Virus genome (UHGV): UHGV-0064883
Source of the DNA: a virus
DNA length: 64,000 nt
Direction: 5' to 3' (one strand)
Position 1 is the first letter of the stretch. Each line of letters opens with the position of its first letter. The notes below the pieces were generated by a model. It worked only from the letters and a program-made list of their open reading frames with translations, was not told where the DNA came from and did not search any database. Below are positions 6,911 through 63,769 of this stretch, one piece after another. The position numbers and the translations under genes are program-made.

Positions 6911-6929
6911 ATTTGCAATCATTGCAAAT
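6911..6929. repeat. 19-bp perfect palindrome ATTTGCAATCATTGCAAAT (copy 1 of 18)
   Basis: Two TTGCAA hexamers around a 3-bp centre. Ends 9 nt before the ATG of the next gene. Confidence 0.9.
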
Positions 6930-6937
6930 CAGGAATT

Positions 6938-7738
6938 ATGGCTATTTCACACAACGGACCGCGGGAACCCATTGAACAGCCCGGAACGATGACCGTCGAA
7001 CGAGTGTCGGAAGACGGCGTAGTCCGGTTTGAAAAATCAGCAACCAGAGTGTTTGAGGTTCCGAAGGATATGGCGGCGGCCTTCATGCTGACCCCCCCGG
7101 CAACCCCCATGCCGGGAACAATCTTTTTGGAATCAAGGTGTGAAGAAGAAAATGCGGAGTGGTCCAAGGTGACATTCACCTACGGCGAAGACCCGGACGA
7201 TTCATCCGGAAGCGGCGGAGACGATTCCGTGCGCCGAACGGTCAACGTCACTACCTCTTTAGTAGATATCCCTATCCAATGTTCGCCAAAGTACATTGAC
7301 ATTTCCGGGGATTCCCCAAAATCGAAAATTCCTGATGACGATTTAAAACTTCTAGCCTATGCCATGTCCGGGCAGTTCAAAGACCCCCGGAACAACACCT
7401 ATATTAAGGACAGCCTTACGTCGGACATGGCTCGTGAGATTTTCGACTACCTGACGCTCGGAATCACCCACTTTGCCTATCCGCAGACCGTGATACGCAT
7501 CTCTTACCCAAAGTCCAAAGTAGGTTCCGGCCAGCAATTCGGCGTTCCCACTAAAACACCCGGAAAAAAGGGAGATGCCATTCCAGTAAAACTTCCGGAA
7601 GACAGCAAAATTGATTTCACATTGATTTCCCGGTCTATCAACTACGACGGGAAATACCACACGACAGACGAGGAATACCAGTCATCGTCCCCGTTGGGCT
7701 GGAAAAATGACCGGAAATTCTGGGGGGAAGGAGAATAA
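6938..7738 (+). CDS. Putative distal tail protein (by position after tape measure)
   Basis: First ATG of ORF 6884-7738; the track start lies inside the palindrome. No family motif recognised. Confidence 0.35.
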   Translation: MAISHNGPREPIEQPGTMTVERVSEDGVVRFEKSATRVFEVPKDMAAAFMLTPPATPMPGTIFLESRCEEENAEWSKVTFTYGEDPDDSSGSGGDDSVRRTVNVTTSLVDIPIQCSPKYIDISGDSPKSKIPDDDLKLLAYAMSGQFKDPRNNTYIKDSLTSDMAREIFDYLTLGITHFAYPQTVIRISYPKSKVGSGQQFGVPTKTPGKKGDAIPVKLPEDSKIDFTLISRSINYDGKYHTTDEEYQSSSPLGWKNDRKFWGEGE

Positions 7739-7752
7739 ACCTGTAAAATATT

Positions 7753-10233
7753 ATGGCATTACGGCGAGTACGAAGAGGGGAACCCCTGCGTATTGGACAG
7801 ATTAACCAGTACGCCGAACTTCTTGGGCAGATGGCCGGGGGCGGAAAACTTTTCCGGGCTAACAGGACCGGCTACCAGATGGACCGGGACCTGAACCCCC
7901 TGTTCCCGTTTGAGTTGATGGCCCTGGATGCCCAGTCAAGCACCGGGGAAGCTACAAAAGGCGTGCCGCTGGCGAAATCCAAGGATTTAATTGCGTTTCT
8001 CCACCCCGGTTCCGTCACGTTTATCGGACTGGACGGCGCAGCCTCACAGGTGTTCCCGGTCATCAAAGACCCGAAATACGCCCCTACGGATTCCCCCGGC
8101 GGAGGAAACGAGGATGGAGCCGCCGTCAATACCTGGCCCCGCCCCGGTATTCAAATTGAGCTTGATACGGTATATGGCATTCATCTGTTCGCTAAATTGG
8201 AGCGAGTGACGATGCAGATAGGCCGTGACCGGATAATTCAGGTGTCGGTCAAGAAATGGTGTCGTGACCGCACCCCGTTCATCGGCACGGAGGACGAAAT
8301 GGACAGCTCCGCTTCGGACGATGAAGATATTATCCGGACGTTCATTCCATTGTTCCGGCCCATTGAAGACAGCGCAATCGAAGGAAATGTTTATGTGGAA
8401 AACCTGCATGAAAGCGATTTAATTCTTCCGGACATTCCGCTTGAAGGCGGGTCATCATCTTCCTCAGCGTCCTCTTCATCCAGCAGCTCCAGTAGTTCGA
8501 GCGGCGGAGTATCATTCAGCAGTTCAAGCAGCTCATCATCATCAAAATCAGAGGGTTCGGAATCCGCATCTTTTTCCTCGTCTTCGTCGTCGGCAGGCCC
8601 CTACATTGACCCTACATTGATTTCCGTGCCGGCGCGGGAACCCAATTCGGAATTCGGCGGCATCTACCGCACCCTGAAAGGCTTTAATTTTCCGCCCAGC
8701 GATGACAAGCCGGGCATGGCCTACATCATCATTTTCAGCCCTGTCGAATCTTGCGATTGGGTAAACTTTTCCACAGCCGGATTGGTGGTAACCAAGACGG
8801 ACAAACAATGGGAAGGCTATGTTGCCATTGACGACAACGGGAACTGGGATTGCAACGTCATCATTGACGAATTCACCGACCCGGAACATACCGGTGTCCA
8901 CCGCTACAAAGATTTCAAAGTCGGCTACCGGGCTAAAAAGCAGAACATAGCCGTAGATATTCTCATTGTTGACCAGGCGCCCCCGGAAGCGTCCTCTTCC
9001 TCGTCTTCGTCGTCTGTGAGTTCATCTTCGGAAGAAAAGTATTATTTCCGGTTTGTCCCTAATAAAATTACGGTGGACAGCCAATTTCAGAAAGTACAGG
9101 GCTATATCCGCACCGACTCCCCCTACGGGTGGAAAATCCCGGAGGACTTTCCGGCGCAGTTCCCTTCCGGGAAATGGGTATCTATTTCCCCGCTGACCGG
9201 GAAAGACCACGATAATTTTGAGGTTACGTTCCAGAAAAACGAGGAAGGGACCACCCGCGACAATCTGGTAACAGGGTACGCATTGACCTCGCACGGCACA
9301 TTGATGCTGGAAGCAACCGACACCCTGAATGTCACCCAGACCCCGGAAGCCTCTTTATCCAGCAGTTCCAGTAGTTCGAGCAGTTCCTCTTCATCTTCCT
9401 CGTCTTCCTCATCTTCCTCTTCCGGCTCGTCAAGCTCGTCCCAGGCGGACTGGTTTGAAGTGTTCCCCACTTCTATGGCTTTTAGCGCGGACGGCAAGCC
9501 AAAAGATTCTAACAAGGTAAGGCTTCGCGGAACGGTCGGATGGCGGGCTGATACGCAAAAAGACTGGTGTTCCATGTCCCCGTCATCAGGCCCAGCGCCA
9601 GGGGACGCGGGAACGGAAGCCGTGATAACCTGCCAGCCGAACAAGGAGGTAAACGGAAGAAGCACACTGGTTGAAATTAGCGTCACCCTGAATGGGTCCC
9701 CGCAATATTACTACGTCAATGTTATCCAGGAAGGCAATCCTCCTGTTCCTTCGTCGGAAAGCGAATCTTCCTCATCCTCGGAAGCCTCTTCGGGGGCCAG
9801 TTCGGCTTCATCAAGCAAAACCGCCATTTTGCCGGTGCGCGGAAAGTTCCTCGGCATGATGTGCATGGAGTCCCCGGAAACCTGGTTTATCGACTTTGCC
9901 ACTATCCACCTCCCGCTTGGGCTGATGTTGGTTGACCAGACGTTCATTGATGTTACCGAGCCGGGTTCCATAGCGGTTGTGTCCGCCATAGATGACCGGG
10001 GCCGCCCCGCAAGAGCATGGCTGCGGCTGGAAGGCGGGGAAAAGAAATATCTGACCCTGTATGCCCGTCCGCAGGGGTTGGGCCGGATATTCAGGCCGGA
10101 CCGCATTACCGTCCAACTGATAGGGAGGCGCCTCGGACACCGGAGCAGGTTCCCGGAATTTTCAGAAGCGCAGTTCCGGGCGAACGAAGCGTTCTACGCC
10201 CAGGCGCACAGGGAGAAAACCCCGAAAGATTAA
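7753..10233 (+). CDS. Tail-associated adhesin-like protein with poly-Ser linkers and two BACON/Ig-like domains
   Basis: 826 aa with five poly-Ser tracts encoded by (TCN)n DNA repeats at about 8449-8530, 8570-8595, 8985-9025, 9355-9440 and 9750-9815. Two segments (aa 430-520 and 575-660) have a BACON-like pattern (GW/W-x-S-x-SP...G...V...TL-V). Lies in the position of a tail tip or receptor-binding protein. Confidence 0.55.
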   Translation: MALRRVRRGEPLRIGQINQYAELLGQMAGGGKLFRANRTGYQMDRDLNPLFPFELMALDAQSSTGEATKGVPLAKSKDLIAFLHPGSVTFIGLDGAASQVFPVIKDPKYAPTDSPGGGNEDGAAVNTWPRPGIQIELDTVYGIHLFAKLERVTMQIGRDRIIQVSVKKWCRDRTPFIGTEDEMDSSASDDEDIIRTFIPLFRPIEDSAIEGNVYVENLHESDLILPDIPLEGGSSSSSASSSSSSSSSSSGGVSFSSSSSSSSSKSEGSESASFSSSSSSAGPYIDPTLISVPAREPNSEFGGIYRTLKGFNFPPSDDKPGMAYIIIFSPVESCDWVNFSTAGLVVTKTDKQWEGYVAIDDNGNWDCNVIIDEFTDPEHTGVHRYKDFKVGYRAKKQNIAVDILIVDQAPPEASSSSSSSSVSSSSEEKYYFRFVPNKITVDSQFQKVQGYIRTDSPYGWKIPEDFPAQFPSGKWVSISPLTGKDHDNFEVTFQKNEEGTTRDNLVTGYALTSHGTLMLEATDTLNVTQTPEASLSSSSSSSSSSSSSSSSSSSSSSGSSSSSQADWFEVFPTSMAFSADGKPKDSNKVRLRGTVGWRADTQKDWCSMSPSSGPAPGDAGTEAVITCQPNKEVNGRSTLVEISVTLNGSPQYYYVNVIQEGNPPVPSSESESSSSSEASSGASSASSSKTAILPVRGKFLGMMCMESPETWFIDFATIHLPLGLMLVDQTFIDVTEPGSIAVVSAIDDRGRPARAWLRLEGGEKKYLTLYARPQGLGRIFRPDRITVQLIGRRLGHRSRFPEFSEAQFRANEAFYAQAHREKTPKD

Positions 10234-10261: not shown

Positions 10262-10630
10262 CTATGCCCATATAACATTCCCCAGCCGGGAAATATCCAC
10301 CGCCTTTTTCCCGGCGCGCATAGCCGCCCTCAGTTCCCCGTAGTTCCTGCGGATTTCGTGCGTTACTGGGTAATCCCGGAACACGTTGATATAATTCAGC
10401 CACCGTTCCTTTTGCGTGTACACCGCCGAATCTTTTATTATGTAGATTGTTGCGCTTTCATCAATTTTCCTGTCCGGGAGGCACGTGCAGCAATACCACT
10501 GATACCACTCATGAATGAGGTACACTGTATTAAAGCCGCGCAGGGTCATGACAGCCGTATCAGCGATATATTTGGGGGCCAGATTAAAAAGCTGCTCTTT
10601 GGTCAGTTCAATTTTCTTTGGTGCTTTCAT
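10262..10630 (-). CDS. Hypothetical protein (the only clear minus-strand gene in the first 60 kb)
   Basis: 122-aa ORF with its own TTGCAA-17-TATGAT promoter upstream on the minus strand. Confidence 0.45.
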   Translation of the reverse strand: MKAPKKIELTKEQLFNLAPKYIADTAVMTLRGFNTVYLIHEWYQWYCCTCLPDRKIDESATIYIIKDSAVYTQKERWLNYINVFRDYPVTHEIRRNYGELRAAMRAGKKAVDISRLGNVIWA

Positions 10631-10639: not shown

Positions 10640-10676
10640 ATGCCTTCATCATAGCTATCTTTTTAAAAATTGCAAG
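10640..10676 (-). promoter_or_regulatory. Sigma70-like promoter (TTGCAA-17nt-TATGAT) for the minus-strand gene
   Basis: Reverse complement reads tcTTGCAAtttttaaaaagatagcTATGATgaagg, ending 12 nt before the ATG. Confidence 0.35.
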
Positions 10677-10702: not shown

Positions 10703-10721
10703 ATTTGCAATCATTGCAAAT
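10703..10721. repeat. 19-bp palindrome ATTTGCAATCATTGCAAAT (copy 2)
   Basis: Followed by TTCAGAAAT, then the GT25 gene start. Confidence 0.9.
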
Positions 10722-13551: not shown

Positions 13552-13570
13552 ATTTGCAATCATTGCAAAC
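13552..13570. repeat. 19-bp palindrome ATTTGCAATCATTGCAAAC (copy 3)
   Basis: Immediately after the spanin-like gene, at the start of the AT-rich noncoding region. Confidence 0.85.
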
Positions 13571-14211
13571 CGGAAAAACCGGTGATTCAAGGCCGTAATT
13601 CTACGGTCTTTTTTATTTGTCAATATTGTTTTTTACGTTTTTATAACTTATTGAGCATCATTTGGTTGCAAATAGTATGCACCAAGAAATTTCTAGTTTA
13701 GTTATTTGTCATTGAGTATTAGATACTTACAAATAATTTGCACTTTTATAAGTTCAGGGCATTTGCAGGCGTTTGAGTATCAATAAGTTATAAATGCACT
13801 AAATCCGGAAAAACGCGCTGAATCCGCAATGGGTGCAAATATAACCAGCTGATTATCATATCATTGTGCATAACTTGCACTTGCGCGGAAGTGCATTTAT
13901 TTTACAAACTACTGAAAATGAACAGGTTATAAAGACAACCAGAAGGGAAAAACGTCAATTTTTGTTTTTATAAGTCATTGAACTATATGAAATTATAAAA
14001 AATTTGCACTTTGGGAGTGCATTAATATATATATATATATAATGTTCGTTCCTCACATTAATATATATCTATATTCTCCGTCCTTACCCTAAAGGGTAAG
14101 TACGGGGCCTGGGCTGTTCCGCCCAGGCACTCTGGGACAGGGTTGGAAGAGTAGCCCAGAGTGTGAAATTTCCACTACTGTTCCGGCCAGTTTCATGATA
14201 CGGTTCCGGGG
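13571..14211. other. AT-rich 640-bp noncoding region with TTATAA and TGCAC(T) motifs, (AT)n and hairpins; candidate origin or regulatory hub
   Basis: No ORF of 60 aa or more. GC content is far below the 55% genome average. Repeated TTATAA, AATTTGCACTTT and GTGCATTT motifs. Inverted repeats GCACTTgcgcggAAGTGC and TGCACTttgggAGTGCA. (AT)9 at about 14031-14048. Confidence 0.5.
14083..14170 (+). ncRNA. GC-rich cluster of three consecutive stem-loops (candidate structured RNA)
   Basis: CCGTCCTTACCC-taaa-GGGTAAGTACGG, then CCTGGGC-tgttcc-GCCCAGG, then CACTCTGGG-(18 nt)-CCCAGAGTG. Sits 40 nt upstream of the holin ATG and is not tRNA-like. Confidence 0.25.
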
Positions 14212-15523: not shown

Positions 15524-15542
15524 ATTTGCAATCATTGCAAAT
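15524..15542. repeat. 19-bp palindrome ATTTGCAATCATTGCAAAT (copy 4)
   Basis: 33 nt upstream of the AAA ATPase ATG. Confidence 0.9.
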
Positions 15543-18497: not shown

Positions 18498-18516
18498 ATT
18501 TGCAACGATTACAAAA
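18498..18516. repeat. Degenerate palindrome copy ATTTGCAACGATTACAAAA (copy 5)
   Basis: The second half-site has two mismatches. Still intergenic and upstream of a + strand gene. Confidence 0.5.
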
Positions 18517-24823: not shown

Positions 24824-24946
24824 ATTTGCAATGATTGCAAATTTTTTTCGTGAATTGAATACTTTTATCTTGCAATTTTCATTTTTTAGTGTTATAACAA
24901 ACCCATCAAAGGGCGAAAGCCCTGAATCAATAAAAACATCACCAAT
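24824..24946 (+). promoter_or_regulatory. Palindrome (copy 6, ATTTGCAATGATTGCAAAT) plus promoter/leader cassette
   Basis: Palindrome followed by TTGCAA-17nt-TATAAC and a leader containing the hairpin GGGC-GAAA-GCCC, then an A-rich stretch to the ATG. Confidence 0.5.
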
Positions 24947-26215
24947 ATGAGCAAGACCGAAATTGATATTACCAAGCCGCTTAATCTGGCTGACCGCCAA
25001 GAACTCCGTTTTATCGGATATGCCACGCAGAATAACGACCCGAAGCTGTCTCCGGGGGATGTCATCTATTTTCTGAAACAGGCGCGGGACGATAAAAACA
25101 TCCCTGTTTATGACGTTGCCACTACCAAAAAGGGCAAGGTAGCCGTGGAAAGTCTTTACGCTGACGAATTTGAAGTTGTGGATGCGGATTCCGCGCCGGA
25201 AGTCGCCCCGGTTGCGGCCCCTGCCAAAAAGAAAAAGACGGAACTCAAGAAGGTGGAGGAACCCGGCGAAGAGCAGCCCGCCCCCAAGGCTAAGAAGGCC
25301 AAAGCCGTCAAAGCGGAAGCTGCCCCTGCCAAGAAGACCAAGAAGGAAAAAGTGAAGGCCGAAGCCCCCGTGGAAGTGCAGGAGCCGCAGGAAGTCCAGG
25401 AACCTGCAGCTGAGGTTGAATCCGTTCCCGCCGTCCAGCCCGAAGCCGTCAAGGAGGTTGAAGACATCAAGCCCGCCTCCACTCCGGAATTGGGAATGGA
25501 TGCCGTAACCCTTAACTTGATTCAGGAACACGGCGGGAATGCCTGTGCCGCCGCCCTTGCCATTGCCAAGGATTCTGAGGCTAAGCGATTCCTTCTTGGC
25601 GGCGTGCTGCTGTACATTCAAAAAACAAAAGTTTATGAAGAAGAAAAGGATTCTGCCGGAGTTCCACGCTTCACCGGGCAAAAGGGCTTTGCCATGTTTT
25701 GCGAGCAATACATCGGGCTTTCCTACTCTTCCGCAAAATTGTACCAGCGCATCTATGCTAATTTTACCAGCATGGGCCTCGGTGTTGAGGATTTTCGGAG
25801 AGTGGGTACGGCTAAGGCCCGTGAAATTGTGCAAATGATTGAGCTGGATTTTTCCAAGGCTGATGTCGAAGAGGCTATTCATATCGGCGAAACGAAAACG
25901 CACGAAGAACTGCACTCCCATGTGAGCTCGAAAATGCAGGATGCTGAAATTGAGGGGCATGGACTGCGTGATAAAGTCAAATGCACGCTCTACAAATTCG
26001 AGGTGTTTGCCGACCAGGAAGACATCATCAACGCCGCCATCCGGCTGGCAATGGACAACGGGGACATCAAGGACACCGATCAGAACGCCCTTGGACGCGC
26101 GTTTGTTTCCATTTGCTCCGACTATTTGCAGGCATATAGCAAAGTGGCGCAGCCGACGGTGGACGAAACTGAAGAATTTCAGGAATCTGTAGCCCAGGAA
26201 TCCGTCAATGCCTGA
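24947..26215 (+). CDS. Hypothetical protein with histone-H1-like Lys/Ala/Pro-rich linker (putative DNA-binding)
   Basis: 422 aa. A KKAKAVKAEAAPAKKTKKEK region lies between the N- and C-terminal domains. Confidence 0.45.
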   Translation: MSKTEIDITKPLNLADRQELRFIGYATQNNDPKLSPGDVIYFLKQARDDKNIPVYDVATTKKGKVAVESLYADEFEVVDADSAPEVAPVAAPAKKKKTELKKVEEPGEEQPAPKAKKAKAVKAEAAPAKKTKKEKVKAEAPVEVQEPQEVQEPAAEVESVPAVQPEAVKEVEDIKPASTPELGMDAVTLNLIQEHGGNACAAALAIAKDSEAKRFLLGGVLLYIQKTKVYEEEKDSAGVPRFTGQKGFAMFCEQYIGLSYSSAKLYQRIYANFTSMGLGVEDFRRVGTAKAREIVQMIELDFSKADVEEAIHIGETKTHEELHSHVSSKMQDAEIEGHGLRDKVKCTLYKFEVFADQEDIINAAIRLAMDNGDIKDTDQNALGRAFVSICSDYLQAYSKVAQPTVDETEEFQESVAQESVNA

Positions 26216-26932: not shown

Positions 26933-27075
26933 ATTTGCAACGATTGCAAATTTTTTTCTCAAAAAGATTCTTTTTTCTCTTGCAATTCATCAAAAATAAT
27001 GCTAACTTATATTCATCAAAGGGAGGGAATCCCTAAGAGAAAAAACCTAAAAACCGAATTAGAAAGACCAAAACA
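26933..27075 (+). promoter_or_regulatory. Palindrome (copy 7, ATTTGCAACGATTGCAAAT) plus conserved promoter/leader cassette
   Basis: T-run, then TTGCAA-17nt-TAACTT, then CATTCATCAAAGGGAGGGAATCCCT with the hairpin AGGGA/TCCCT, then an A-rich leader to the ATG. Confidence 0.55.
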
Positions 27076-32123: not shown

Positions 32124-32142
32124 AATTTGCAACGATTGCAAA
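32124..32142. repeat. 19-bp palindrome ATTTGCAACGATTGCAAAT (copy 8)
   Basis: 34 nt upstream of the next ATG, followed by a T-run. Confidence 0.9.
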
Positions 32143-32176
32143 TTTTTTTCGCAAAAACCAGAAACAGAAATAAACC

Positions 32177-35362: not shown

Positions 35363-35928
35363 ACATCCTCGGCATTGACCCGTCCCTGACTGCCACCGGG
35401 CTTTATTTGCGGGAAACCGGGCTTATGGCCGCCCCGGAATCCACGCTGATTGCCCCAAAAAATTTGAGGGACATGGAGCGGCTGTGTTTTATCCGCGACT
35501 TCCTTCTCGGATTCATCAACAGAGACCGGGCGTTTTTTCCCGAATTGGCGGTCATTGAAGGGTACGCAATGGGGGCGAAAACCCATACGCACGACCTCGG
35601 AGAAGCCGGAGCCATGCTGAAAACTGCGGTTTACGAGGCGGGAATTGACCTGCTGATAGTCCCGCCCGCCACGCTGAAAAAGTTCATCACGGGAAGCGGG
35701 AACAGCAAAAAACAAGTGATGATGGTGGAAGCGCTTTCTCGGTATCATGTTAAAATCACCGATGATAATATTTGTGATGCGTTCTGCCTGACACACTTTG
35801 GGGAAGCCTGGTACGCGGCTAATGCTTTTGGCCGTACAGCGGGAGGAATCGGCATCACAAAAAGCCAGTATGCCTGCCTGTCCGCTGCCCGGCTGGTTCC
35901 TGGCCGCAAACGGTCGTCTCGGAGATAA
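35359..35928 (+). CDS. RuvC-family Holliday junction resolvase
   Basis: MNILGIDPSLTATGL (catalytic D), AVIEGYAM (E), and a C-terminal DDNICDAF (D). Confidence 0.75.
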   Translation: MNILGIDPSLTATGLYLRETGLMAAPESTLIAPKNLRDMERLCFIRDFLLGFINRDRAFFPELAVIEGYAMGAKTHTHDLGEAGAMLKTAVYEAGIDLLIVPPATLKKFITGSGNSKKQVMMVEALSRYHVKITDDNICDAFCLTHFGEAWYAANAFGRTAGGIGITKSQYACLSAARLVPGRKRSSRR

Positions 35929-35953
35929 CCGGCTGCCGGTTTTTCCTTTTTTC

Positions 35954-36093
35954 AATTTGCAATCATTGCAAATTTTTTTCGCTGACTGTGTAATTTTATC
36001 TTGCAATTTCTAAAAAATAATGCTAAATTGCATTCATCAAAGGGAGGGAAACCTCCCAAGAATAAAAAACCTAAAAACCTGAAAGACAAGATT
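35954..36093 (+). promoter_or_regulatory. Palindrome (copy 9) plus conserved promoter/leader cassette
   Basis: ATTTGCAATCATTGCAAAT, then TTGCAA-17nt-TAAATT, then CATTCATCAAAGGGAGGGAAACCTCCC (hairpin GGGAGG-GAAA-CCTCCC), then AAAAACCTAAAAACCTG and the ATG. Confidence 0.55.
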
Positions 36094-36762: not shown

Positions 36763-36803
36763 CCCCTAATTCGGAGTGATGCCCGGATTAGGGGCCTTTT
36801 TTT
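36763..36803 (+). terminator. Intrinsic terminator
   Basis: CCCCTAAT-(16 nt)-ATTAGGGG stem followed by CC and T7. Confidence 0.5.
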
Positions 36804-36806: not shown

Positions 36807-36952
36807 CATTTGCAATGATTGCAAATTTTTTTCTCAAAAAAGATTCTTTTTTCTCTTGCAATTTCTAAAAAAGAATGATAAATTACATTCATCAAAGGGA
36901 GGGAATCCCTGAGAGAGAAAAACAAAAAACCTAAAAAACCTGTTAGACTAAA
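36807..36952 (+). promoter_or_regulatory. Palindrome (copy 10, ATTTGCAATGATTGCAAAT) plus conserved promoter/leader cassette
   Basis: TTGCAA-17nt-TAAATT, then CATTCATCAAAGGGAGGGAATCCCT (hairpin AGGGA/TCCCT), then an A-rich leader. Confidence 0.55.
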
Positions 36953-40503: not shown

Positions 40504-41358
40504 ATGGCAACTGATAATGATGACGAGTTTTCCGGTTTTTTCGGGGACGATTCCGGCGGCTTTTTCGACGAACCCCAGGAACCTTCCAGCGCCCCAGATA
40601 CCCCGGAATCACAGGAGGAAGCCCCGCCGGAGGAACCTGATGAGGACGAGGATGACGGGGAACTTAATGAGCTTGCCGGGACTGGCGCCGGAACGGTCGC
40701 ACGCCTGAACCCGGAGATTCGGCATCAGATTATGGCCCAAGCTAATTCCCGCGCCTGGACGCGCCATGAACGCCATGTTGTCATGCGCCGGGCCATGTCG
40801 GCGGGAAAGCTGGAAGAGATTATTGACTGGTACCCGCGTTCCGGACAGAGCATCCACATTTTATCCTGCGGGGAAGTAGATTTGTTTTCCTACCTTCATT
40901 TCATGCTTCGGCAACGCCCCTATGCCTATATTTTGCTTTCGACATTTAGCTTAGGTTATATGGAAATTCGCAACCTGCACGAATATCTGGAAAAAGGAGT
41001 GATTGGCCGCCTGGATGTGTACGCTGGAAGTATCTTCCGCAACCGGACTATCCGGACGCGGGAATATGATGCGCTGGTTGCCCTGCATCAGAGATTTCCG
41101 CATTGTTTTTGCGGTCTGGCAAATGTCCACGCGAAAGTCATTGCCGGGATTGACCGAGATAACGGGGAAGGTGATTTTGTCGTGGAGGCCAGCGCTAACG
41201 CCAACCTGAATTTCCGTGTTGAGCAGGCTTGTCTGACGATGGACACCGATTTGGCGCTTTTTTACAAGGAGGCGTTTGACGGCGTGGATTGCCCGCAGGA
41301 TGCCCAGTATTTTAAGAATGTGAGACGGACTCCGTGGGTGGTTGATCGGAAAAGCTGA
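40504..41358 (+). CDS. Hypothetical protein with acidic N-terminus
   Basis: 284 aa. The N-terminus is rich in D, E, F and G. Confidence 0.45.
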   Translation: MATDNDDEFSGFFGDDSGGFFDEPQEPSSAPDTPESQEEAPPEEPDEDEDDGELNELAGTGAGTVARLNPEIRHQIMAQANSRAWTRHERHVVMRRAMSAGKLEEIIDWYPRSGQSIHILSCGEVDLFSYLHFMLRQRPYAYILLSTFSLGYMEIRNLHEYLEKGVIGRLDVYAGSIFRNRTIRTREYDALVALHQRFPHCFCGLANVHAKVIAGIDRDNGEGDFVVEASANANLNFRVEQACLTMDTDLALFYKEAFDGVDCPQDAQYFKNVRRTPWVVDRKS

Positions 41359-41493
41359 TTTGCAATCATTGCAAATTTTTCCCGGCAATCCTGATTTTTT
41401 CTCTTGCAATTTGTCAAAAAGAATGCTAACTTATATTCATCAAAGGGAGATAAAACCTTAAAAATAAAAAACCTAAAAACCTGTTAGAATAAG
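41358..41493 (+). promoter_or_regulatory. Palindrome (copy 11) plus conserved promoter/leader cassette
   Basis: ATTTGCAATCATTGCAAAT, then TTGCAA-17nt-TAACTT, then CATTCATCAAAGGGAGATAAAACCTT (stem AAGG/CCTT), then an A-rich leader. Confidence 0.5.
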
Positions 41494-42720: not shown

Positions 42721-43104
42721 ATGAGCAACAATTATTGTTTAAAAGCTTCCGGCAAGCAGATTGTCGAACTCGCGCGGTTAATGGATGTGCATTCCAGACG
42801 CACCGGATTTGATGAGCCGATATTGTACCTGGGAGATGCCTGCCGCCTGGAACCCATTCCCTACTCCAAAGTGTATGCGACTTGCGACACGCCCCGGATA
42901 TTTTCCGCATGTCTGGTGGATGAATCCAGCTCCCATGACCTGATGGAGCTGACTGACCTGTTTGGTGTGGTAGGCTTGTTCCCTCATCACCCCCGGCTGC
43001 TTCCGTCTTATTTCAGCACGCAAAAATTAAAGTTCTGCGGGGAATATGTCTCCGTATATTGCGCGTATATTTACGTTCCTGAACATCCTGATTTTTTGCA
43101 ATGA
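42721..43104 (+). CDS. Hypothetical protein
   Basis: 127-aa ORF. Confidence 0.4.
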   Translation: MSNNYCLKASGKQIVELARLMDVHSRRTGFDEPILYLGDACRLEPIPYSKVYATCDTPRIFSACLVDESSSHDLMELTDLFGVVGLFPHHPRLLPSYFSTQKLKFCGEYVSVYCAYIYVPEHPDFLQ

Positions 43105-43112
43105 TTGCAAAT
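43094..43112. repeat. 19-bp palindrome TTTTGCAATGATTGCAAAT (copy 12)
   Basis: Overlaps the stop of the previous gene; 37 nt before the next ATG. Confidence 0.85.
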
Positions 43113-44217: not shown

Positions 44218-44287
44218 ATAGCCGCAGGGGAACTCCGGGGAGGATTATTTCCCCGGAGCTTTTTTATTCCTTTCGATTTCCTTCCCC

Positions 44288-44429
44288 ATTTGCAACGATT
44301 GCAAATTTTTTTCTCAAAAAAGATTCTTTTTTCTCTTGCAATTTATAAAAAATAATACTAAATTGCATTCATCAAAGGGAGGGAAACGTCCCAAGAATAA
44401 AAAACCTAAAAACCTAAATTACTGATACC
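44288..44429 (+). promoter_or_regulatory. Palindrome (copy 13, ATTTGCAACGATTGCAAAT) plus conserved promoter/leader cassette
   Basis: TTGCAA-17nt-TAAATT, then CATTCATCAAAGGGAGGGAAACGTCCC (stem GGGA/TCCC), then an A-rich leader. Confidence 0.55.
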
Positions 44430-49061: not shown

Positions 49062-49080
49062 ATTTGCAATCATTGCAAAT
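49062..49080. repeat. 19-bp palindrome ATTTGCAATCATTGCAAAT (copy 14)
   Basis: 13 nt after the terL stop. Followed by TTCAGAGAC, then a 320-nt leader containing a C8 tract (49348-49355). Confidence 0.9.
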
Positions 49081-53396: not shown

Positions 53397-53419
53397 AACC
53401 ATGCTAAGAATCCATGAGA

Positions 53420-53438
53420 ATTTGCAATCATTGCAAAT
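53420..53438. repeat. 19-bp palindrome ATTTGCAATCATTGCAAAT (copy 15)
   Basis: Ends 20 nt before the ATG of the second ParB-like gene. Confidence 0.9.
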
Positions 53439-54295: not shown

Positions 54296-54341
54296 CACAG
54301 GCCGCTTTGATTTTTTTACCGCAATAACTTTTCTTTTTTTT

Positions 54342-55205: not shown

Positions 55206-55293
55206 AGCTTTTCCGGGAAGAAAGACCCTTCATCTATCGGCCCTGTCTGGATATTAGCCCGGCAGGGCCGCAGTATATCTTTCTCTTTTTCTC

Positions 55294-55431
55294 AATTTGC
55301 AATCATTGCAAATTTTTTTTCTCAAAAAAGATTCTTTTTCTCTTGCAATTTATAAAAAATAATGCTAAATTACATTCATCAAAGGGAGGGAATAACTCTC
55401 CTACAGCAAAAAGCCTGAAAGTTAAAACATA
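55294..55431 (+). promoter_or_regulatory. Palindrome (copy 16) plus conserved promoter/leader cassette
   Basis: ATTTGCAATCATTGCAAAT, then TTGCAA-17nt-TAAATT, then CATTCATCAAAGGGAGGGAATAACTCTCCT (stem GGAG/CTCC). Confidence 0.55.
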
Positions 55432-55683: not shown

Positions 55684-55769
55684 TACCCCCTTCCCCGGCT
55701 GGAAATTATATTTGGCCGGGGAATAAACCTGATTTCATTATTATTTACTTAAATCATAAAGAAAAAACC

Positions 55770-56060: not shown

Positions 56061-56075
56061 TCCTCCAGACAAAAA

Positions 56076-56636: not shown

Positions 56637-56837
56637 TTGAACATGAAAAAAGAAAAACTTAAATGTTTTATATGCGGGCAAGCAGTAGAATTAGTTGGTG
56701 ACTCTGCTCAAATAGAACGTATGGGTTATGACAGGCACAATGACCGTCCGTTTTTTAATGTCTGCCGTGAATGTCAACAACTTATCGACAAATGCCTTAT
56801 AGAATTTGAGCAGAAATTTCCAGATGAAGACGCTTAA
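56637..56837 (+). CDS. Small zinc-ribbon protein
   Basis: CFICGQ...CREC, 66 aa. Confidence 0.35.
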   Translation: MNMKKEKLKCFICGQAVELVGDSAQIERMGYDRHNDRPFFNVCRECQQLIDKCLIEFEQKFPDEDA

Positions 56838-57168
56838 ATGTCCACTGTGCGGGAGTTTGTTGAAACTGGATTTCAGTTGCAAATATATCTGCCCCAATTG
56901 CGAACTAGCTGCAAAAAGCGGAATCTCAAAAGAAGAGGCACTAAAACGTGCGGAAAAACTTATTTCTCAATTCCCACCTATCATGCGGGTATTTCCAGGA
57001 GATAAGTTAAAGTTTTTTAACCACCAAATGCGCCAGAAAATTGCATACATAGAAAAAGTTAATTTGAAGTCTGGCTGGATAAAAACAAATAAAGGATTTG
57101 CCCGCCCGGATGATGTGATTCTGTGGCCTTGGGAACTTGAACAAAAAGAAGAAGGAGATAAACAATGA
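56824..57168 (+). CDS. Zinc-ribbon protein, paralog family C (copy 2)
   Basis: MKTLKCPLCG...CPNC, then ISQFPPIMRVFPGDK, then WPWELEQ. Confidence 0.45.
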   Translation: MKTLKCPLCGSLLKLDFSCKYICPNCELAAKSGISKEEALKRAEKLISQFPPIMRVFPGDKLKFFNHQMRQKIAYIEKVNLKSGWIKTNKGFARPDDVILWPWELEQKEEGDKQ

Positions 57169-57506
57169 AAACACCTAGATGTCCGCTGTGCGGAGAAGAA
57201 TTAACGCCGTCTGTACAAAAATACGGATTTGAATACGTCTGCTGGAAGTGCAAATGGCAAACCGCTTCACTTTGCTCCACCAGGCAAGAAGCGGAAAAAA
57301 CAGCTCAAAAGCTAATCTCCAAGTTCCCTCCCATCATGAGGGTTCATCCTGGCGATAAGCTTCATGACAAGTGGTGCGGGCTGGTCACGGTTGAATCCGT
57401 CGATAAGGAAGACTGTGTAATCACAGTACGAACTGTCAAGGGGAATGTATCCCGTACTTATTGCGAGGATGTTAATGAATGGCCCTGGGAAATCGAACAA
57501 GAATAA
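57165..57506 (+). CDS. Zinc-ribbon protein, paralog family C (copy 3)
   Basis: MKTPRCPLCG...CWKC, then ISKFPPIMRVHPGDK, then WPWEIEQ. ATGA overlap with copy 2. Confidence 0.45.
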   Translation: MKTPRCPLCGEELTPSVQKYGFEYVCWKCKWQTASLCSTRQEAEKTAQKLISKFPPIMRVHPGDKLHDKWCGLVTVESVDKEDCVITVRTVKGNVSRTYCEDVNEWPWEIEQE

Positions 57507-57509
57507 ATT

Positions 57510-57803
57510 ATGGACATAAATGAATTGTTAGAAGATAAGGATAACGGGCTTGTTCCGTTAGACGGGCGCAGTTATGATATAGCTGCATACGCTGGACAAC
57601 TACGGCAGGCCCGGAATCTTTTACTGGGTTCCCTGCCCGCTGAAACAGTGGCTTGCATGTCGGATAATGAAGTACTCCAAACTTTGGTTGACTGCAAGAA
57701 TCTCGTTCCAGTCGCCGCCTCCTATAAAGACGGCATAGACGATGAAGTCATCTTTCTGGTTCCGGCGGAAATATTGAAGAGGTGCAGGGTTCTGCAACGC
57801 TGA
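57510..57803 (+). CDS. Hypothetical protein
   Basis: 97-aa ORF. Confidence 0.35.
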   Translation: MDINELLEDKDNGLVPLDGRSYDIAAYAGQLRQARNLLLGSLPAETVACMSDNEVLQTLVDCKNLVPVAASYKDGIDDEVIFLVPAEILKRCRVLQR

Positions 57804-57862
57804 ATGATTTTCCGGCAAACCACGCTATGAACGGAAAAACATGAGAAAAAAGGAATCATGCA

Positions 57863-58270
57863 ATGACCGATATTCTTCTATCTATCAAAAAGCCGTTCTC
57901 CGACCTCATTTTGTCGGAGGAAAAGAAATGGGAGCTGCGGAAAACCGAACCCCGCGCCATGAAAGACGGCCCCATAATGCTCTGGCTTTATGAATCCGGG
58001 AAGGATGGGGCGCATGCCATTATTGGAAAATGCCAGACAAAGTATGCGCTGCCCATGCTCCAACAACTGAACAACTGGCAACGCCTGTGGATGATGCGGG
58101 AAGCCTGCATCACGAAAGAATACCTGTCTTCCTACATCCCCTGCCGCGCCTGGAACCTCACCAGCCCCGTGCGGCTTCCCTACGCCGTACCGCTCTCTGA
58201 AATCGGCCTGGTCCGCCCTCCGCAGTCCTGGCAATACCTCACCGAAGAACAAGCAGCACTTTTACGATGA
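57863..58270 (+). CDS. ASCH-domain (PUA-like) protein
   Basis: N-terminal ILLSIKKPFSDLILSEEKKWELRK matches the ASCH start pattern (ILLSIKP-x-Y-x-x-I-x-x-G-x-K-x-x-E-x-R). Confidence 0.45.
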   Translation: MTDILLSIKKPFSDLILSEEKKWELRKTEPRAMKDGPIMLWLYESGKDGAHAIIGKCQTKYALPMLQQLNNWQRLWMMREACITKEYLSSYIPCRAWNLTSPVRLPYAVPLSEIGLVRPPQSWQYLTEEQAALLR

Positions 58271-58420
58271 AAAACCCTATAAAATTTCTACAGCACATGA
58301 TTACCGGCATACAGACTGCCACCCCCCCCCACCTCTACTACCGCCGCCGAAGAAACCCCGGAAAGGCAGACGTACAGGAATCTCCGGCAGGCATGGAGAT
58401 ATTACTACCGCACTCACAAG

Positions 58421-58633
58421 GTGGATTTGGCCATTCTTTACCAGTTAACCGGCCTGCGTGACCGGCTGGACCCGGACAAAGACCCGGAACAGTACGCCCA
58501 TGCGGTGAAGGCGGTGGAAGCCATCAATGGTGTCCTGGCTCAAAACCGGATTATCCAGACACGCATTTCCGCCCTGATGACCGACTGCCGGAAAAAGTAC
58601 GAGAAAAACAGAACGCCCCATCATGAGCAGTAA
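58421..58633 (+). CDS. Hypothetical protein; possibly the C-terminal part of a gene split at a C9 tract
   Basis: 70-aa ORF. The upstream ORF 58267-58461 carries a C9 tract (58322-58330). Deleting one C would fuse the two frames. Confidence 0.3.
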   Translation: MDLAILYQLTGLRDRLDPDKDPEQYAHAVKAVEAINGVLAQNRIIQTRISALMTDCRKKYEKNRTPHHEQ

Positions 58634-59423
58634 TTTTGAAATACCGCCCCAGGAACTTTATGTTGACTGGCCGGAACAGCCCTGGCCCCGCCTGTCAGGG
58701 CAGCTTGACCGGAAGCAGCTCCGCCGCGAATTGCTGGACGTGCTGAAACATCTTTCAAACAAGGCGAAACTCCGTATTGGGCCGTCCGGGACCACCAGCA
58801 AGAAAGTACATTATGCCTGCGAATCCAGATATACCCGTCTGATAGCCTCTGACTGTGTGGCGCTGGCCGTCATTACCCGGAAACGGCTGGAAGCTGACAA
58901 GCCGGCAGGCTATTGCGGGCATATTGCACCCAAATCGGGAAGAATCTACCCCGACAAGCCGAACTACTTCACGCAGTTCTGGAAACGGTCGATGCCCGGC
59001 AGCCCGGAATGCACCATTGCCATCAACTACGATACGTGCATTGCCAGCCTCGAACGGTTTGCCTTTTTCGCCAATATGGCTGATTCCAGCCAAAACTGCT
59101 GCGCGGAAAATTACTATTTTGGCGTAACAAACCGCCGTGGAAACTTTATTGCCGTCCATCCGTGCTATATCGGCAATTTTCTCCGGCTGGTGGAAATCCT
59201 GCACCGCCATCTTGGCGGCCGATTGAAAATGACCCTGCGCGTTCCCGCCGCACAGAGCGGCCCTCTGCGTTTTTCCTTCCTGGCGGGCAAGAATGCGGGC
59301 GATTGCTATATTCTGGACTACGCCGTAATGCCGTTCTGGCATAAGCATCCCCTCAAAGGCTTCCGCCGCGTGGCGCTGAACTGCTTCCAGATAGGCAATT
59401 GGGCGGGGAAGAACAAGCCCTGA
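58623..59423 (+). CDS. Hypothetical protein
   Basis: 266-aa ORF. Confidence 0.45.
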   Translation: MSSNFEIPPQELYVDWPEQPWPRLSGQLDRKQLRRELLDVLKHLSNKAKLRIGPSGTTSKKVHYACESRYTRLIASDCVALAVITRKRLEADKPAGYCGHIAPKSGRIYPDKPNYFTQFWKRSMPGSPECTIAINYDTCIASLERFAFFANMADSSQNCCAENYYFGVTNRRGNFIAVHPCYIGNFLRLVEILHRHLGGRLKMTLRVPAAQSGPLRFSFLAGKNAGDCYILDYAVMPFWHKHPLKGFRRVALNCFQIGNWAGKNKP

Positions 59424-59426: not shown

Positions 59427-59445
59427 ATTTGCAATGATTGCAAAT
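59427..59445. repeat. 19-bp palindrome ATTTGCAATGATTGCAAAT (copy 17)
   Basis: 3 nt after the previous stop; 90 nt before the tail fiber ATG. Confidence 0.9.
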
Positions 59446-61977: not shown

Positions 61978-62547
61978 ATGCCTATGAAAGACAACATCCT
62001 AGTGTTATGCCACAGCAACATGCACCGCAGCCCGTTCGTTGCGGAATTCATCCGGAACTCCCCCTACGGAGACAGCTATGAAGTCCGTGATGCGGGACTG
62101 CACGTCGACAAGGAGCAGCGCGTGCCCAAATCCCTTCAGCGGGCCTTCCAGACCGTCTCCCAGGGGAGCCTGAAAAGCCACAAGTCGCGCCCGGTGGGAA
62201 TCAGCGATATTCTGTGGGCAGACAAAATAATCATCATGGAGCCGGAGAACAAAAGCGACCTCCTGCAAATGCTCGGAAGCCTGCACCTCTCCGACAAGCC
62301 CCGGTACGACCACATTGTCTCCAAGATAATCTCCCTGGCCCAAATCGGCGGGAAGACAGCCGTGGACGACCCTCACCACTACTCCCCCGGAACGATCGAA
62401 TACGGAAAAGTAGTATTAAACCTCGCCTGCCTGACAGCCGTCCTTCTGGAAACGTGGGAAGCCCAGCGTTCATTGAGCGGAGGGGAAAAATCCAAAGACC
62501 GGAAACCGGACGACGCGGAATCCGCAGCAGGCCCATTCGGAGCTTGA
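61978..62547 (+). CDS. Low-molecular-weight protein-tyrosine phosphatase (LMW-PTP/ArsC-fold)
   Basis: ILVLCHSNMHRSPFVAEFI carries the C-x5-R-S P-loop signature. A downstream DP (VDDPHHYS) matches the position of the catalytic Asp. Confidence 0.65.
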   Translation: MPMKDNILVLCHSNMHRSPFVAEFIRNSPYGDSYEVRDAGLHVDKEQRVPKSLQRAFQTVSQGSLKSHKSRPVGISDILWADKIIIMEPENKSDLLQMLGSLHLSDKPRYDHIVSKIISLAQIGGKTAVDDPHHYSPGTIEYGKVVLNLACLTAVLLETWEAQRSLSGGEKSKDRKPDDAESAAGPFGA

Positions 62548-62882: not shown

Positions 62883-62986
62883 TGCATGTATGCAGGGGGG
62901 ACATATCGCGCGCAGGCGCGGATGCGTAAAGGCATGCGGCCCTACCCCCCCCTATGAAAGTAAATAAATAAAGAAAAAAATCGGAA

Positions 62987-63742
62987 ATGCACGCCTATTT
63001 GCTCTACACACCGGGGGAAATGCTGGAAGGCGAAGACGAACTTACCGCACTGGGCTACCATGTCCATCCTTTTTTGGGCAATAATGATACGTCCGGCCTC
63101 CGGAACAAAGTCAAACACATTCCCAGCCTGGGGCATTCCGCGTCCTATTTATCAGACGGACTGGGCTACAACTGGTGCGGCCACGTCCATGCGCTCCGCG
63201 CCAACTTTGCAACCATGCTGGAAACTTACATGGATGCGGACGACCTTACTATATATGGAGAGTCGGACTGCGTGCCCGCGCCTTATCCCCCTGTGTCCGC
63301 CGACGATATTTCCTGTGTTTGTCAAGAAGCGGTTTCCCGGCATCCTGAAATCGGCATCATCCGTCTGTACCGCCGCGCCACACTATTTAACGAGCCTACC
63401 TGGTGGAACCATGCGCCCCTTGAGATTGTCCCGCTGAAAAAGGCGGCCAGAATCTCCAACATTCCTTTTACGAAATATTACTGTCAAACCCACGCCCTGA
63501 TTATCCGCAGGCACGTCCGCCAAACGGTCATCGACGCCATGCGGGATTATTATTTGCCCATTGACGTGCTCCTATCTTATTTGTCCCAGATTGGGACCGT
63601 GCCCGTGTGGCACACCAGCATCAACCTAATGCTTCAACGCCCCCACAGCACGGGAAAGAGGCTGGCGGACTGGCAGCGCAAACATTCTGTTCCGGCAGCG
63701 GACTATTGGCGCGACAGGCCCGGACTGACTGGAAAAAGGTAG
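62987..63742 (+). CDS. Hypothetical protein
   Basis: 251 aa. A C9 tract lies 35 nt upstream of the ATG. Confidence 0.4.
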   Translation: MHAYLLYTPGEMLEGEDELTALGYHVHPFLGNNDTSGLRNKVKHIPSLGHSASYLSDGLGYNWCGHVHALRANFATMLETYMDADDLTIYGESDCVPAPYPPVSADDISCVCQEAVSRHPEIGIIRLYRRATLFNEPTWWNHAPLEIVPLKKAARISNIPFTKYYCQTHALIIRRHVRQTVIDAMRDYYLPIDVLLSYLSQIGTVPVWHTSINLMLQRPHSTGKRLADWQRKHSVPAADYWRDRPGLTGKR

Positions 63743-63750
63743 GTGCACAA

Positions 63751-63769
63751 ATTTGCAATCATTGCAAAT
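63751..63769. repeat. 19-bp palindrome ATTTGCAATCATTGCAAAT (copy 18)
   Basis: Last copy. Downstream the gene strand switches to minus. Confidence 0.9.

Follow-up and report, generated by a model that had tools for sequence, protein, structure and literature searches.

Palindromes dispersed over a mobile genome as operators for a single dimeric protein are already known as a kind of element. Plasmid RK2 has 12 such OB sites, in three position classes: beside -35 boxes, tens of base pairs upstream, and far from promoters. Here we analyze a 19-bp palindrome that recurs throughout a stretch of 64,000 nucleotides of the virus genome UHGV-0064883 (the window), together with its candidate reader, the product of the plus-strand gene at 24947..26215 (the 24947 protein). 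We regard KorB of RK2, with its dispersed OB palindromes, as the closest working analogue. Like the phage element, OB (core TTTAGCGGCTAAA) is a perfect palindrome with an S (C/G) centre and has many copies over a mobile genome (PMC11790492). Its reader has a ParB-type helix-turn-helix and regulates its own operon and many others, as the phage protein may do. Yet KorB carries a CTPase domain at its N terminus, moves along DNA as a sliding clamp, and depends on KorA or TrbA and IncC, whereas the phage protein is predicted to combine an SH3-like N-domain with a Lys/Ala/Pro-rich linker, and no sequence similarity between the two is detectable.

Among phages, we see the nearest analogues in two groups of mycobacteriophages. 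Corndog and the other Cluster O phages carry a 17-bp repeat, TGTTCGGNNNCCGAACA, with 7-bp invariant arms and a variable 3-bp centre; it is present in >30 copies per ~70-kb genome, mostly intergenic or at gene ends, its centre is oriented independently of transcription, and for these phages, which are not obviously temperate, no function of the repeat is known (PMC4351075). It differs from the element described here in sequence and lineage, about one-third of the Corndog copies lie inside genes, and neither a reader nor a fixed promoter spacing was reported. The stoperators of cluster A, bound by L5 gp71, are likewise dozens of repressor sites in short intergenic regions genome-wide, including structural operons, and are thought to stop transcription genome-wide (PMC4351075). 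However, they are asymmetric 13-bp sites oriented with transcription, and the protein that binds them is the immunity repressor of a temperate phage that integrates. We rejected this class because the element here is a perfect dyad and neither an integrase nor a CI-like repressor was found in the proteins scanned; a stoperator-like action, namely a roadblock inside operons, is possible.

ParB-parS and Noc-NBS systems also use palindromic sites (14-16 bp) and ParB-fold helix-turn-helix dimers, but they need a CTPase domain and a ParA ATPase, and their sites are few and not located at gene-block borders. The centromere sites of the plasmid-prophage N15 are dispersed over its genome and, in addition, influence promoters close to them. 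Finally, T4-type phages have PeSL (promoter early stem-loop) cassettes, repeated modules of a terminator or stem-loop and an early promoter that flank small accessory genes. Some copies of our palindrome stand in cassettes that look alike; in contrast to PeSL, whose stem-loop has no conserved sequence, the sequence here is conserved, most copies are promoterless, and related dyads reach distant relatives. Our literature search found the motif strings in no paper, and palindromes go unmentioned in the genome papers of the relatives. A few phage groups, such as Cluster O, were already known to carry dispersed palindromes, without a reader protein or mechanism. The dyad family, its breadth across a virus family, and a ParB-fold, CTPase-free candidate reader all appear to be new.

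Number and placement of the palindromes

We searched with ATTTGCAATSATTGCAAAT, allowing ≤3 mismatches, and used 100 dinucleotide shuffles as the null. The consensus, ATTTGCAA(T/C)(C/G)ATTGCAAAT, has 19 copies in the window against 0.07 expected from the dinucleotide-preserving shuffles, none of which (0/100) reached even 2 matches. The genome, reconstructed from overlapping contigs, measures ~87 kb, and the ~23 kb beyond the window add six copies, which brings the total to 25. Twelve of the window copies are perfect, 6 have one mismatch, and that at 18498 is degenerate, with 3. Four of the one-mismatch copies differ only by T to C at position 9, which gives a CGA centre; the remaining two are those at 13552 and 43094. 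Overall, the window centres are TCA (11 copies), TGA (4), and CGA (4). Given an A at -1 in 21/25 copies and a T at +1 in 20/25, the dyad is effectively 21 bp long. The mean spacing between window copies is 3381 bp (standard deviation, 1465).

According to a conservative gene map (90% coding), 17 of the 19 window copies are fully non-coding (binomial P of ~5e-16, using 9% non-coding positions). The two exceptions touch stop codons: the first base of the copy at 41358 is the last base of the TGA of open reading frame (ORF) 40504-41358, and the copy at 43094 overlaps the last 11 nt of ORF 42721-43104, with its central TGA serving as the stop codon. A preliminary description of this DNA had stated that the palindrome never falls inside a gene, which holds apart from these two, and that every copy lies upstream of a plus-strand gene; the copy at 10703 also serves a minus-strand gene, and that at 13552 precedes a terminator, not a gene. 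Its count of 18 copies had overlooked a perfect one at 2896-2914, and four of its coordinates were one base too low (the corrected starts are 32125, 35955, 36808, and 55295). We recovered the two flank classes as it had described them, namely, a long class embedded in a promoter cassette and a short class, as well as the spurious translation ICNHCKF.

Conservation of the arms

Among strains that are 95-98% identical, changes in the palindrome are confined to positions 9-10 of the centre and to position 19, and the centre changes are repeated C<->G and TC<->CG exchanges. Since loci were fetched by exact matches, a clean selection test is restricted to the six non-exact copies. Across 12 variant instances of these copies, there were 0 changes in 192 arm bases, compared with 3.7% in the 30-nt flanks; even the degenerate state of the copy at 18498 is unchanged in strain variants. 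In L067 (L numbers denote individual contigs or loci), which has 82% nucleotide identity to the window, the copies at 24824 and 26933 are both conserved and perfect, with diverged flanks. The arms are unchanged while the flanks vary; it is therefore the sequence that is conserved, not merely the dyad symmetry, and the arms are under purifying selection.

The C<->G flips of the centre recur at the same sites between strains (e.g., 35964, 36817, 49071, and 63760), with constant arms. Inversion of the whole palindrome would look like this, and an unconstrained centre explains it equally well.

We also scanned one genome from each of 185,579 species. This returned 30 single chance-level matches in unrelated taxa, without an enriched host and without a prophage copy of the motif, indicating that the motif is phage specific. 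A mobile palindrome of the repetitive extragenic palindrome (REP) or miniature inverted-repeat transposable element (MITE) kind was rejected, as the motif is not abundant in the species genomes scanned and no transposase domain was found. Separately, an unrelated low-GC contig (L036, 5455-6270; Chlamydiae metagenome-assembled genome SM23_39) has nine TTTGCAA-N3-TTGCAAA-like matches, mostly at a 99-bp spacing, which indicates a tandem repeat array containing the motif by chance.

A candidate reader with a predicted ParB/KorB-like fold

The gene at 24947..26215 lies just downstream of the palindrome at 24824 and encodes a protein of 422 aa. We modeled it with AlphaFold2 using 51 family members, with predicted local distance difference test scores of >90 in both folded domains. 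The predicted layout is an SH3/chromo-barrel-like N-domain, a disordered Lys/Ala/Pro-rich linker, and a helical C-terminal domain. Structural matches of the model are ParB, Spo0J, and P1 ParB, with the KorB DNA-binding domain among the best, with the caveat that Raf1 scores about as well. The model contains the helix-turn-helix domain of the ParB/KorB fold, and modeling thus shows the C-terminal domain with a predicted ParB/KorB-like DNA-binding fold. A Foldseek search of the model against the PDB and a sequence profile search gave no match, Pfam and PHROGs assigned no function, and the protein is annotated as hypothetical throughout. In BFVD, the model matched uncharacterized phage proteins, a DUF3102 protein, and a "chromosome partitioning protein."

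The C-terminal domain defines a family of ~300 representative proteins. Its most conserved segment, GFxxYVExxLGxxYRKAxYLxxIY...IGWSKAKEL, is the predicted helix-turn-helix region, and some homologues carry SAP or histone-H1-like HC2 domains. The linker (window positions 25200-25470) differs in length among strains, which gives proteins of 375 to 426 aa whose C-terminal domains remain 94-100% identical.

A scan of ~90 phage proteins turned up only one further sequence-specific DNA-binding protein, a Rep_O-like initiator. We rejected the initiator as the reader, since there is no palindrome or iteron cluster at its gene and dispersed sites are unlike an origin. Two ParB_N proteins were rejected because they match the ParB N-domain only; according to the literature, phage ParB-like proteins of this type have no DNA-binding domain and activate thymine dioxygenases. 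A MerR-type regulator of phages DLP3 and SIO-2 has no homologue in this phage and was likewise set aside. The preliminary description had named the Lys/Ala/Pro-rich 24947 protein among possible binders. Its predicted fold and the dyads upstream of its gene in relatives, described below, agree with that suggestion and make it a candidate for binding.

Related dyads across the phage family

The window belongs to a siphovirus-like phage, with a tape measure gene at 3709-6897 and a large terminase gene at 47559-49049, whose product has only ~30% identity to terminases of cultured phages. No close cultured relative emerged when 12 kb was compared by megablast with 50,697 phage records. Contigs that are 95-98% identical occur in IMG/VR and human-gut metagenomes, and hundreds of near-identical protein copies are found in public assemblies. 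More distant relatives were retrieved through homologues of the 24947 protein. The family includes this common human-gut phage, the Stenotrophomonas Delepquintavirus phages, Vibrio SIO-2-like phages, Rhodobacter phage RcZahn, and Rhizobium phage L338C.

In nine of the retrieved loci, TGCA-N5/6-TGCA dyads number 5-27 per 12-40 kb, against <0.03 expected in each under a first-order Markov model. By locus, we found TGCAAC-NN-GTTGCA in L073 (10 in 20 kb) and L082 (5), TGCAAC-W-GTTGCA in L077 (9), TGCAATTAATTGCA in L080 (27), TGCAAT-NN-ATTGCA in L085 and L086 (5 and 8), and GCAAT-NN-ATTGC in L087 (6). A second clade (L070, L071, L072, and L084) carries TTGCAM-N3/4-KTGCAA, with 3-5 copies each. The cultured phages Stenotrophomonas DLP3 (13 in 40 kb), Rhodobacter RcZahn, and Vibrio SIO-2 have multi-copy dyads of their own. 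Two further relatives were identified through the terminase: L064 has dyads of the TTGCAAACYGTGCAA type, as in the second clade, which a strict search with 7-bp perfect arms overlooked, and L065 has no dyad under that strict search. The common denominator is a pair of TGCA tetramers 9-10 bp apart, and both geometries accommodate TTGCAA-TCA-TTGCAA. Most loci, but not all, show an excess of dyads in non-coding DNA. The count over this genome and its relatives that the preliminary description had proposed thus gives 25 copies in ~87 kb and related multi-copy dyads elsewhere; members of this dyad family are present throughout the phage family.

The dyad is also linked to the gene of the candidate reader. 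A dyad lies ≤170 nt upstream of the 24947-homologue gene in 16 of 25 relatives, usually ending 7-9 nt before the -35 box. In RcZahn, for example, the order is TGCAATTAATTGCA, 8 nt, and TTGCAA-17-TACTAT, and in DLP3, it is TGCAATCAATTGCA, 8 nt, and TTTACA-17-TATTCT; in L085 and L086, the dyad overlaps the core promoter of the homologue. Such an arrangement before the gene of the reader is typical of an autoregulated DNA-binding protein.

Could a host factor read these sites instead? RNA polymerase itself might do so, through its alpha C-terminal domain (in the manner of an UP element) or sigma region 4 (with the palindrome as a -35 decoy, as the preliminary description had suggested), or the reader might be a regulator of the CRP/FNR type. 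TTGCAA is indeed also the -35 box of this phage's promoters, the dyad of the relatives sits at about -57 to -43, the position of an UP element, and a 5-N4-5 geometry resembles that of FNR boxes. However, relatives with TTGACA -35 boxes retain TGCAAC..GTTGCA dyads, which means that the dyad is more than a copied -35 box, and the decoy idea is not supported. The TGCA cores are kept across relatives of 43 to 63% GC with unrelated hosts, which makes a phage-encoded reader the most economical explanation. Moreover, the species scan pointed to no enriched host, and the G/C positions are invariant, unlike in A/T-tract UP elements; the long class has separate phased T/A tracts of its own, placed after the palindrome and before the -35 box. 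Nor would such a factor account for stand-alone and intragenic copies, and altogether we consider a host reader quite improbable.

One locus has a dyad-dense repeat region. At 14560-15760 of L080, five TGCAATTAATTGCA dyads fall within ~600 bp, beside about six tandem repeats of the GGAGAGTCTCGGC type and many CATGTTAAC-like repeats. This region looks like an origin or a centromere.

Palindromes in promoter cassettes

Nine copies form the long class, namely, those at 24824, 26933, 35955, 36808, 41358, 44288, and 55295, one outside the window, and the one at 10703, which is read on the minus strand. The order within each cassette is the palindrome, a T-run, ~20 variable bases, TCTTGCAAttt-N16/17-TA(A/T)nnT, and a conserved leader. 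The -35 hexamer starts 46-48 bp from the start of the palindrome in all nine cassettes (9/9), while the intervening sequence has diverged, and the palindrome is centred near -72 to -74. The cassette promoters are putative, being inferred from the conservation of 12 TCTTGCAAttt-N16/17-TAnnnT sites, which is consistent with the earlier assignment of TTGCAA as the -35 box. A generic sigma-70 scan is silent on them because only 8 of 12 consensus positions match.

The palindrome at 24824..24842 (perfect; centre TGA) lies 20 nt past the stop of the DNA polymerase gene and 46 bp upstream of the -35 box of the promoter predicted for the candidate reader gene (24870..24898; TTGCAA-17-TATAAC). The next one, at 26933..26951 (centre CGA), is 8 nt past the RNase H stop and precedes a putative promoter at 26980..27008 (TTGCAA-17-TAACTT). 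Three copies follow terminators. Those at 35955..35973 (perfect) and 36808..36826 (perfect; centre TGA) are downstream of a terminator-like hairpin at 35927-35941 and 13 nt downstream of a strong terminator at 36763-36794 plus T7, respectively, and their putative promoters, at 36001..36029 and 36856..36884, both read TTGCAA-17-TAAATT. The third, at 44288..44306 (centre CGA), lies 29 nt downstream of a terminator at 44233-44258 and has the same promoter sequence, TTGCAA-17-TAAATT, at 44336..44364. At 41358..41376, the perfect copy that shares a base with a stop codon is followed by TTGCAA-17-TAACTT at 41404..41432. The perfect copy at 55295..55313, with TTGCAA-17-TAAATT at 55343..55371, would drive a small gene at 55432-55683. 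These predicted promoters are all on the plus strand. Lastly, the perfect copy at 10703..10721 lies between divergent genes, 11 nt before a plus-strand ATG at 10733. Read on the minus strand, it heads a long-class cassette of palindrome, T-run, and TTGCAA at 10675-10670, with a putative promoter at 10648..10675 (TTGCAA-16-TATGAT) for the gene at 10262-10630(-).

The cassette leader consists of CATTCATCAAAGGGAGGGAA..TCCC and then AAAAACCTAAAAACC, ~40-60 nt before the start codon, and is found at 24905-24950, 27015-27060, 36036-36081, 36891-36936, 41439-41484, 42667-42712, 44371-44416, and 55378-55423. We rejected it as a structured RNA, as it offers only 3 GC pairs (a 3-bp GGG/CCC stem) and no covariation.

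The long-class cassettes share ~130 nt that are 80-95% identical to one another and stand before small genes, some of them paralogous. One might thus see the palindrome as the mere conserved end of a mobile or duplicating promoter cassette, kept by recent copying. This we find highly improbable, since 16 palindromes have no cassette, four cassette-type promoters have no palindrome, the arms are conserved where flanks diverge, and very distant relatives have dyads with unrelated cassettes.

Two of the small cassette-driven genes, at 44430-44690 and 55432-55683, are paralogues (41% identity; E value, 3e-15), and the minus-strand gene at 10262-10630 has a RAGKK motif in common with them. By their sequences, these look like duplicated accessory genes carried along with the promoter cassette.

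Stand-alone palindromes

The promoterless copies follow a stop codon at a distance of 0-32 nt, with one overlapping its stop, and, where a start codon can be assigned, precede it by 8-90 nt. Most occupy spacers of 35-65 nt, whereas other gene junctions are mostly 0-20 nt. Several are preceded by GAAA and followed by TTCA(G/A)AAA, which extends the dyad.

In the tail-gene region, perfect short-class copies with a TCA centre are found at 2896..2914, 18 nt past the stop of ORF 2371-2877 and 25 nt before an ATG at 2940, and at 6911..6929, 13 nt past the tape-measure stop (6897) and 8 nt before an ATG at 6938. The copy at 13552..13570 (one mismatch; final T to C) is 16 nt past a stop at 13535. A perfect short-class copy at 15524..15542 lies 6 nt past a stop at 15517 and 33 nt before the ATG (15576) of an AAA ATPase gene, while the degenerate copy at 18498..18516 (centre CGA) is 7 nt past a stop at 18490 and 9 nt before the ATG (18526) of a DUF2997 gene. 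At 32125..32143, a copy with a CGA centre, 10 nt past a stop at 32114 and 33 nt before an ATG at 32177, is followed by T7 and no promoter. The copy at 43094..43112 (one mismatch, first A to T; centre TGA) is 37 nt before an ATG at 43150. Two perfect short-class copies precede the ParB_N genes: that at 49062..49080, followed by TTCAGAGA, is 12 nt past the large terminase stop (49049) and upstream of the first of these genes (49287-50279), and that at 53420..53438, followed by TTCAAAAA, is 20 nt before the ATG (53459) of the second and would lie inside an ORF only if an upstream ATG at 53414 replaced 53459 as the start. The last two are perfect copies at 59427..59445 (short class; centre TGA), 3 nt past a stop at 59423 and 90 nt before the ATG (59536) of a tail-fibre-like protein gene, and at 63751..63769, 8 nt past a stop at 63742.

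These copies do not read as promoters. The palindrome itself was rejected as a sigma-70-type promoter because its two TTGCAA hexamers are only 3 bp apart, and the short class has no -10-like element at a fixed downstream distance, with ATGs as near as 8-11 nt. Bacteroidota -33/-7 and sigma-54 promoters did not fit when flanks were compared by eye.

DNA site or RNA hairpin

Alternatively, the palindrome may act as RNA, as a weak terminator or attenuator or as a 3'-end or processing hairpin that delimits mRNAs, a role that the preliminary description had also entertained. The position of many copies just after stop codons (0-30 nt) would suit such a role, as would the tight packing of the gene blocks between copies. 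In addition, at least 5 T follow the palindrome in 11/25 copies, and a terminator scan flags the copy at 13552, on the minus strand.

As an RNA stem, however, the palindrome is weak (-5 kcal/mol), contains just 2 GC pairs, and has z-scores that do not stand out, and it fails the criteria for an intrinsic terminator in the plus-strand scan; many short-class copies lack the U-run. True terminators also occur right beside it. Canonical ones on the plus strand are found at 36763..36794 (12 pairs, 7 GC, and then T7), immediately upstream of the copy at 36808, and at 44233..44258 (11 pairs, 7 GC, and then T6), upstream of that at 44288. The plus-strand hairpin at 35927..35941 (6 pairs and then a T-run) precedes the copy at 35955, and an intrinsic-terminator-like hairpin at 13589-13610 lies directly downstream of that at 13552. 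The copies at 35955, 36808, and 44288 thus lie after a terminator and before the next -35 box; with a terminator directly upstream, they are not needed as terminators and are not likely to be much transcribed.

The pattern of variation points the same way. Arm variants (A-C, U-U, A-A, and C-A) have no compensating change, and the otherwise invariant arms show no G-U changes either. Relatives have dyads of 13-15 bp with 0-3 nt spacers, and no useful hairpin can form from the family variants with 0-2 nt spacers. Rfam 15 gave 0 matches in the window at the gathering score. The weak stem, the neighboring terminators, the uncompensated arms, and the lack of Rfam matches together favor a sequence-specific reader at the DNA level. 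The palindrome is probably neither a terminator nor an RNA hairpin, and an RNA role seems unlikely to us.

Neighboring genes and strain-variable segments

Two tandem gene pairs, at 49287-51211 and 53459-55205, each encode a ParB N-domain protein followed by a TET-associated glycosyltransferase (Pfam TAGT), and look like a duplicated module for post-replicative hypermodification of thymine or cytosine. In such modules, ParB-like proteins activate 5-methylpyrimidine dioxygenases (PMC13229309). No dioxygenase was recognized; the ORFs at 52000-52800 and 52797-53396 have no Pfam match. Each pair lies just downstream of a palindrome, and the palindromes might accordingly be imagined as targets or guides of the DNA modification machinery, made up of these pairs and an N6 methyltransferase. 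The one ParB-dependent dioxygenase tested in the literature prefers NTG/NTA, and every arm contains TTG. On the other hand, those ParB-like proteins are reported without a DNA-binding domain and the enzymes with trinucleotide preferences only, a dioxygenase is not identified here, and L068 and RcZahn have dyads without an obvious equivalent module nearby. We see very little likelihood in this explanation.

Other genes of the window encode a DnaB, a family-A DNA polymerase, a RecA-like protein, a RuvC, an RNase H, and the Rep_O-like initiator. Just upstream of the initiator gene, at 19080-19116, is an 18-nt GC-rich inverted repeat (AATCCCCCTGCCAGCAAT / ATCGCCGGCAGGGGGATT), which could be an origin or terminator element. 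The N6 DNA methyltransferase domain protein is encoded at 37977-38783, in an early region of small genes, and a low-molecular-weight phosphotyrosine phosphatase domain protein is encoded at 61978-62547, among the genes of the tail-fibre region. About 2.2-6.2 kb past the window end (L025/L009) lie genes for a sulfotransferase, a phosphoadenosine phosphosulfate (PAPS)-reductase-domain protein (CysD-like), an EF-Tu-type GTPase (CysN-like), and an adenosine phosphosulfate kinase; this sulfate-activation cluster may belong to a DNA or glycan modification pathway.

Strains differ by several segments. The variant L026 has ~825 extra bases at 16505, inside the AAA-ATPase gene (15576-17249), which could be an intron, intein, or homing-endonuclease insertion. 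A block of ~4.6 kb (~54244-58860) is present or absent in comparison with L006, and a segment of ~1 kb (45041-46257) is replaced in L003/L033. The break points of those segments are not at palindromes.

Discussion

The evidence favors one of the earlier suggestions, that the palindrome is the operator of a dimeric phage regulator. More specifically, the palindromes would be dispersed operators for a phage-encoded dimer, most likely the ParB/KorB-fold 24947 protein, in a manner resembling KorB and OB, a proposal that we hold with about even confidence; binding by this protein and a transcriptional outcome, be it repression or activation, are what we infer from the data above. The functional core of the operator would be two self-complementary TGCA tetramers one helical turn apart (TTGCAA-TCA-TTGCAA), and ~25 such operators would stand at the borders of tightly packed gene blocks over ~87 kb. 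The reader would be made early, from a promoter that carries its own site. Since one of the nine palindrome-bearing promoters is that of the candidate reader, autoregulation is implied.

At the nine cassette promoters, which are predicted to be strong and of an early type, a bound dimer would sit at a fixed upstream position and could touch RNA polymerase; in the relatives, it would sit immediately upstream of, or over, the -35 box. At stand-alone sites inside long operons, the bound protein may block or insulate read-through. In this way, many transcription units could be coordinated or silenced at once, with activation also possible, and the Lys/Ala/Pro-rich, histone-H1-like linker might add a non-specific coating of the DNA.

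Several observations weigh against this proposal. Four promoters of the cassette type (15273, 17293, 28998, and 42632) have no palindrome and 16/25 palindromes have no recognizable promoter, so a simple model of one operator per promoter fails. The T-run of the long class is always on the promoter side; orientation therefore matters there. The 24947 protein has no Pfam ParB_N match that would reveal a ParB N-terminal CTPase domain (GxxRxxA box) and is predicted to have a small beta-barrel instead. No CbiA/ParA match that would indicate a partner of the ParA/IncC type was found in ~90 proteins, a set that leaves the tail-gene region (1-13.5 kb) and some small ORFs unscanned. Of the relatives retrieved through the homologues, the nearest two, L068 and L069, carry related motifs of 20-24 nt at equivalent junctions, but these are asymmetric and for the most part share one orientation, and about 8 of the 13 DLP3 dyads lie inside genes, which fits a genome-organizing or partition role at least as well. 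Lastly, the dyad type (T or C at arm position 6 and spacer length) tracks the protein clades, a correspondence confounded by phylogeny.

A serious alternative is that this protein and its sites form a centromere or nucleation system, in which parS-like loading sites organize, segregate, or coat the genome, for example, when it is kept as a phagemid. The structural matches to ParB, Spo0J, and P1 ParB would be expected, and the linker and the HC2 or SAP domains of some homologues, the intragenic copies of DLP3, and the dense L080 array beside tandem repeats all fit. Domain scans found no integrase in this phage, and the relatives DLP5 and DLP3 are described as temperate and carried as phagemids and VHS1 as an extrachromosomal pseudolysogen (PMC5834331, PMC3148565, PMC7326821). 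Yet no ParA-type ATPase was found among the proteins scanned, nor a CTPase domain in the candidate reader. A pure centromere, moreover, needs neither the avoidance of coding sequence seen here nor nine fixed promoter distances, and a dyad plus promoter before the gene of the reader is typical of autoregulation. We therefore judge a centromere rather unlikely, although less so than the RNA, host-factor, cassette, and modification explanations.

Taking the operator proposal further, we tentatively suggest, as a possibility that we rate below it, that a large, mostly uncultured family of siphoviruses of 60-110 kb has a previously undescribed genome-wide control system, in which a CTPase-free ParB/KorB-fold protein with a histone-H1-like linker nucleates on dispersed TGCA-N5/6-TGCA dyads, whose sequence and spacing would co-evolve with it, and thereby switches or silences gene blocks. 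The process under control could be the change from early to late expression or, alternatively, the silencing and upkeep of a phagemid. The element can be traced across the virus family together with a candidate reader and an autoregulation-like arrangement, and three cultured members (DLP3/DLP5, RcZahn, and a SIO-2-like phage) allow testing. If the proposal is true, it would provide a regulatory logic for widespread gut and environmental phages whose genes are mostly unannotated and would add a CTPase-free phage regulator to the proteins known to use the ParB/KorB DNA-binding fold. Multi-copy TGCA-N5/6-TGCA dyads would then also be a signature of transcription-unit borders and of family membership in metagenomic contigs.

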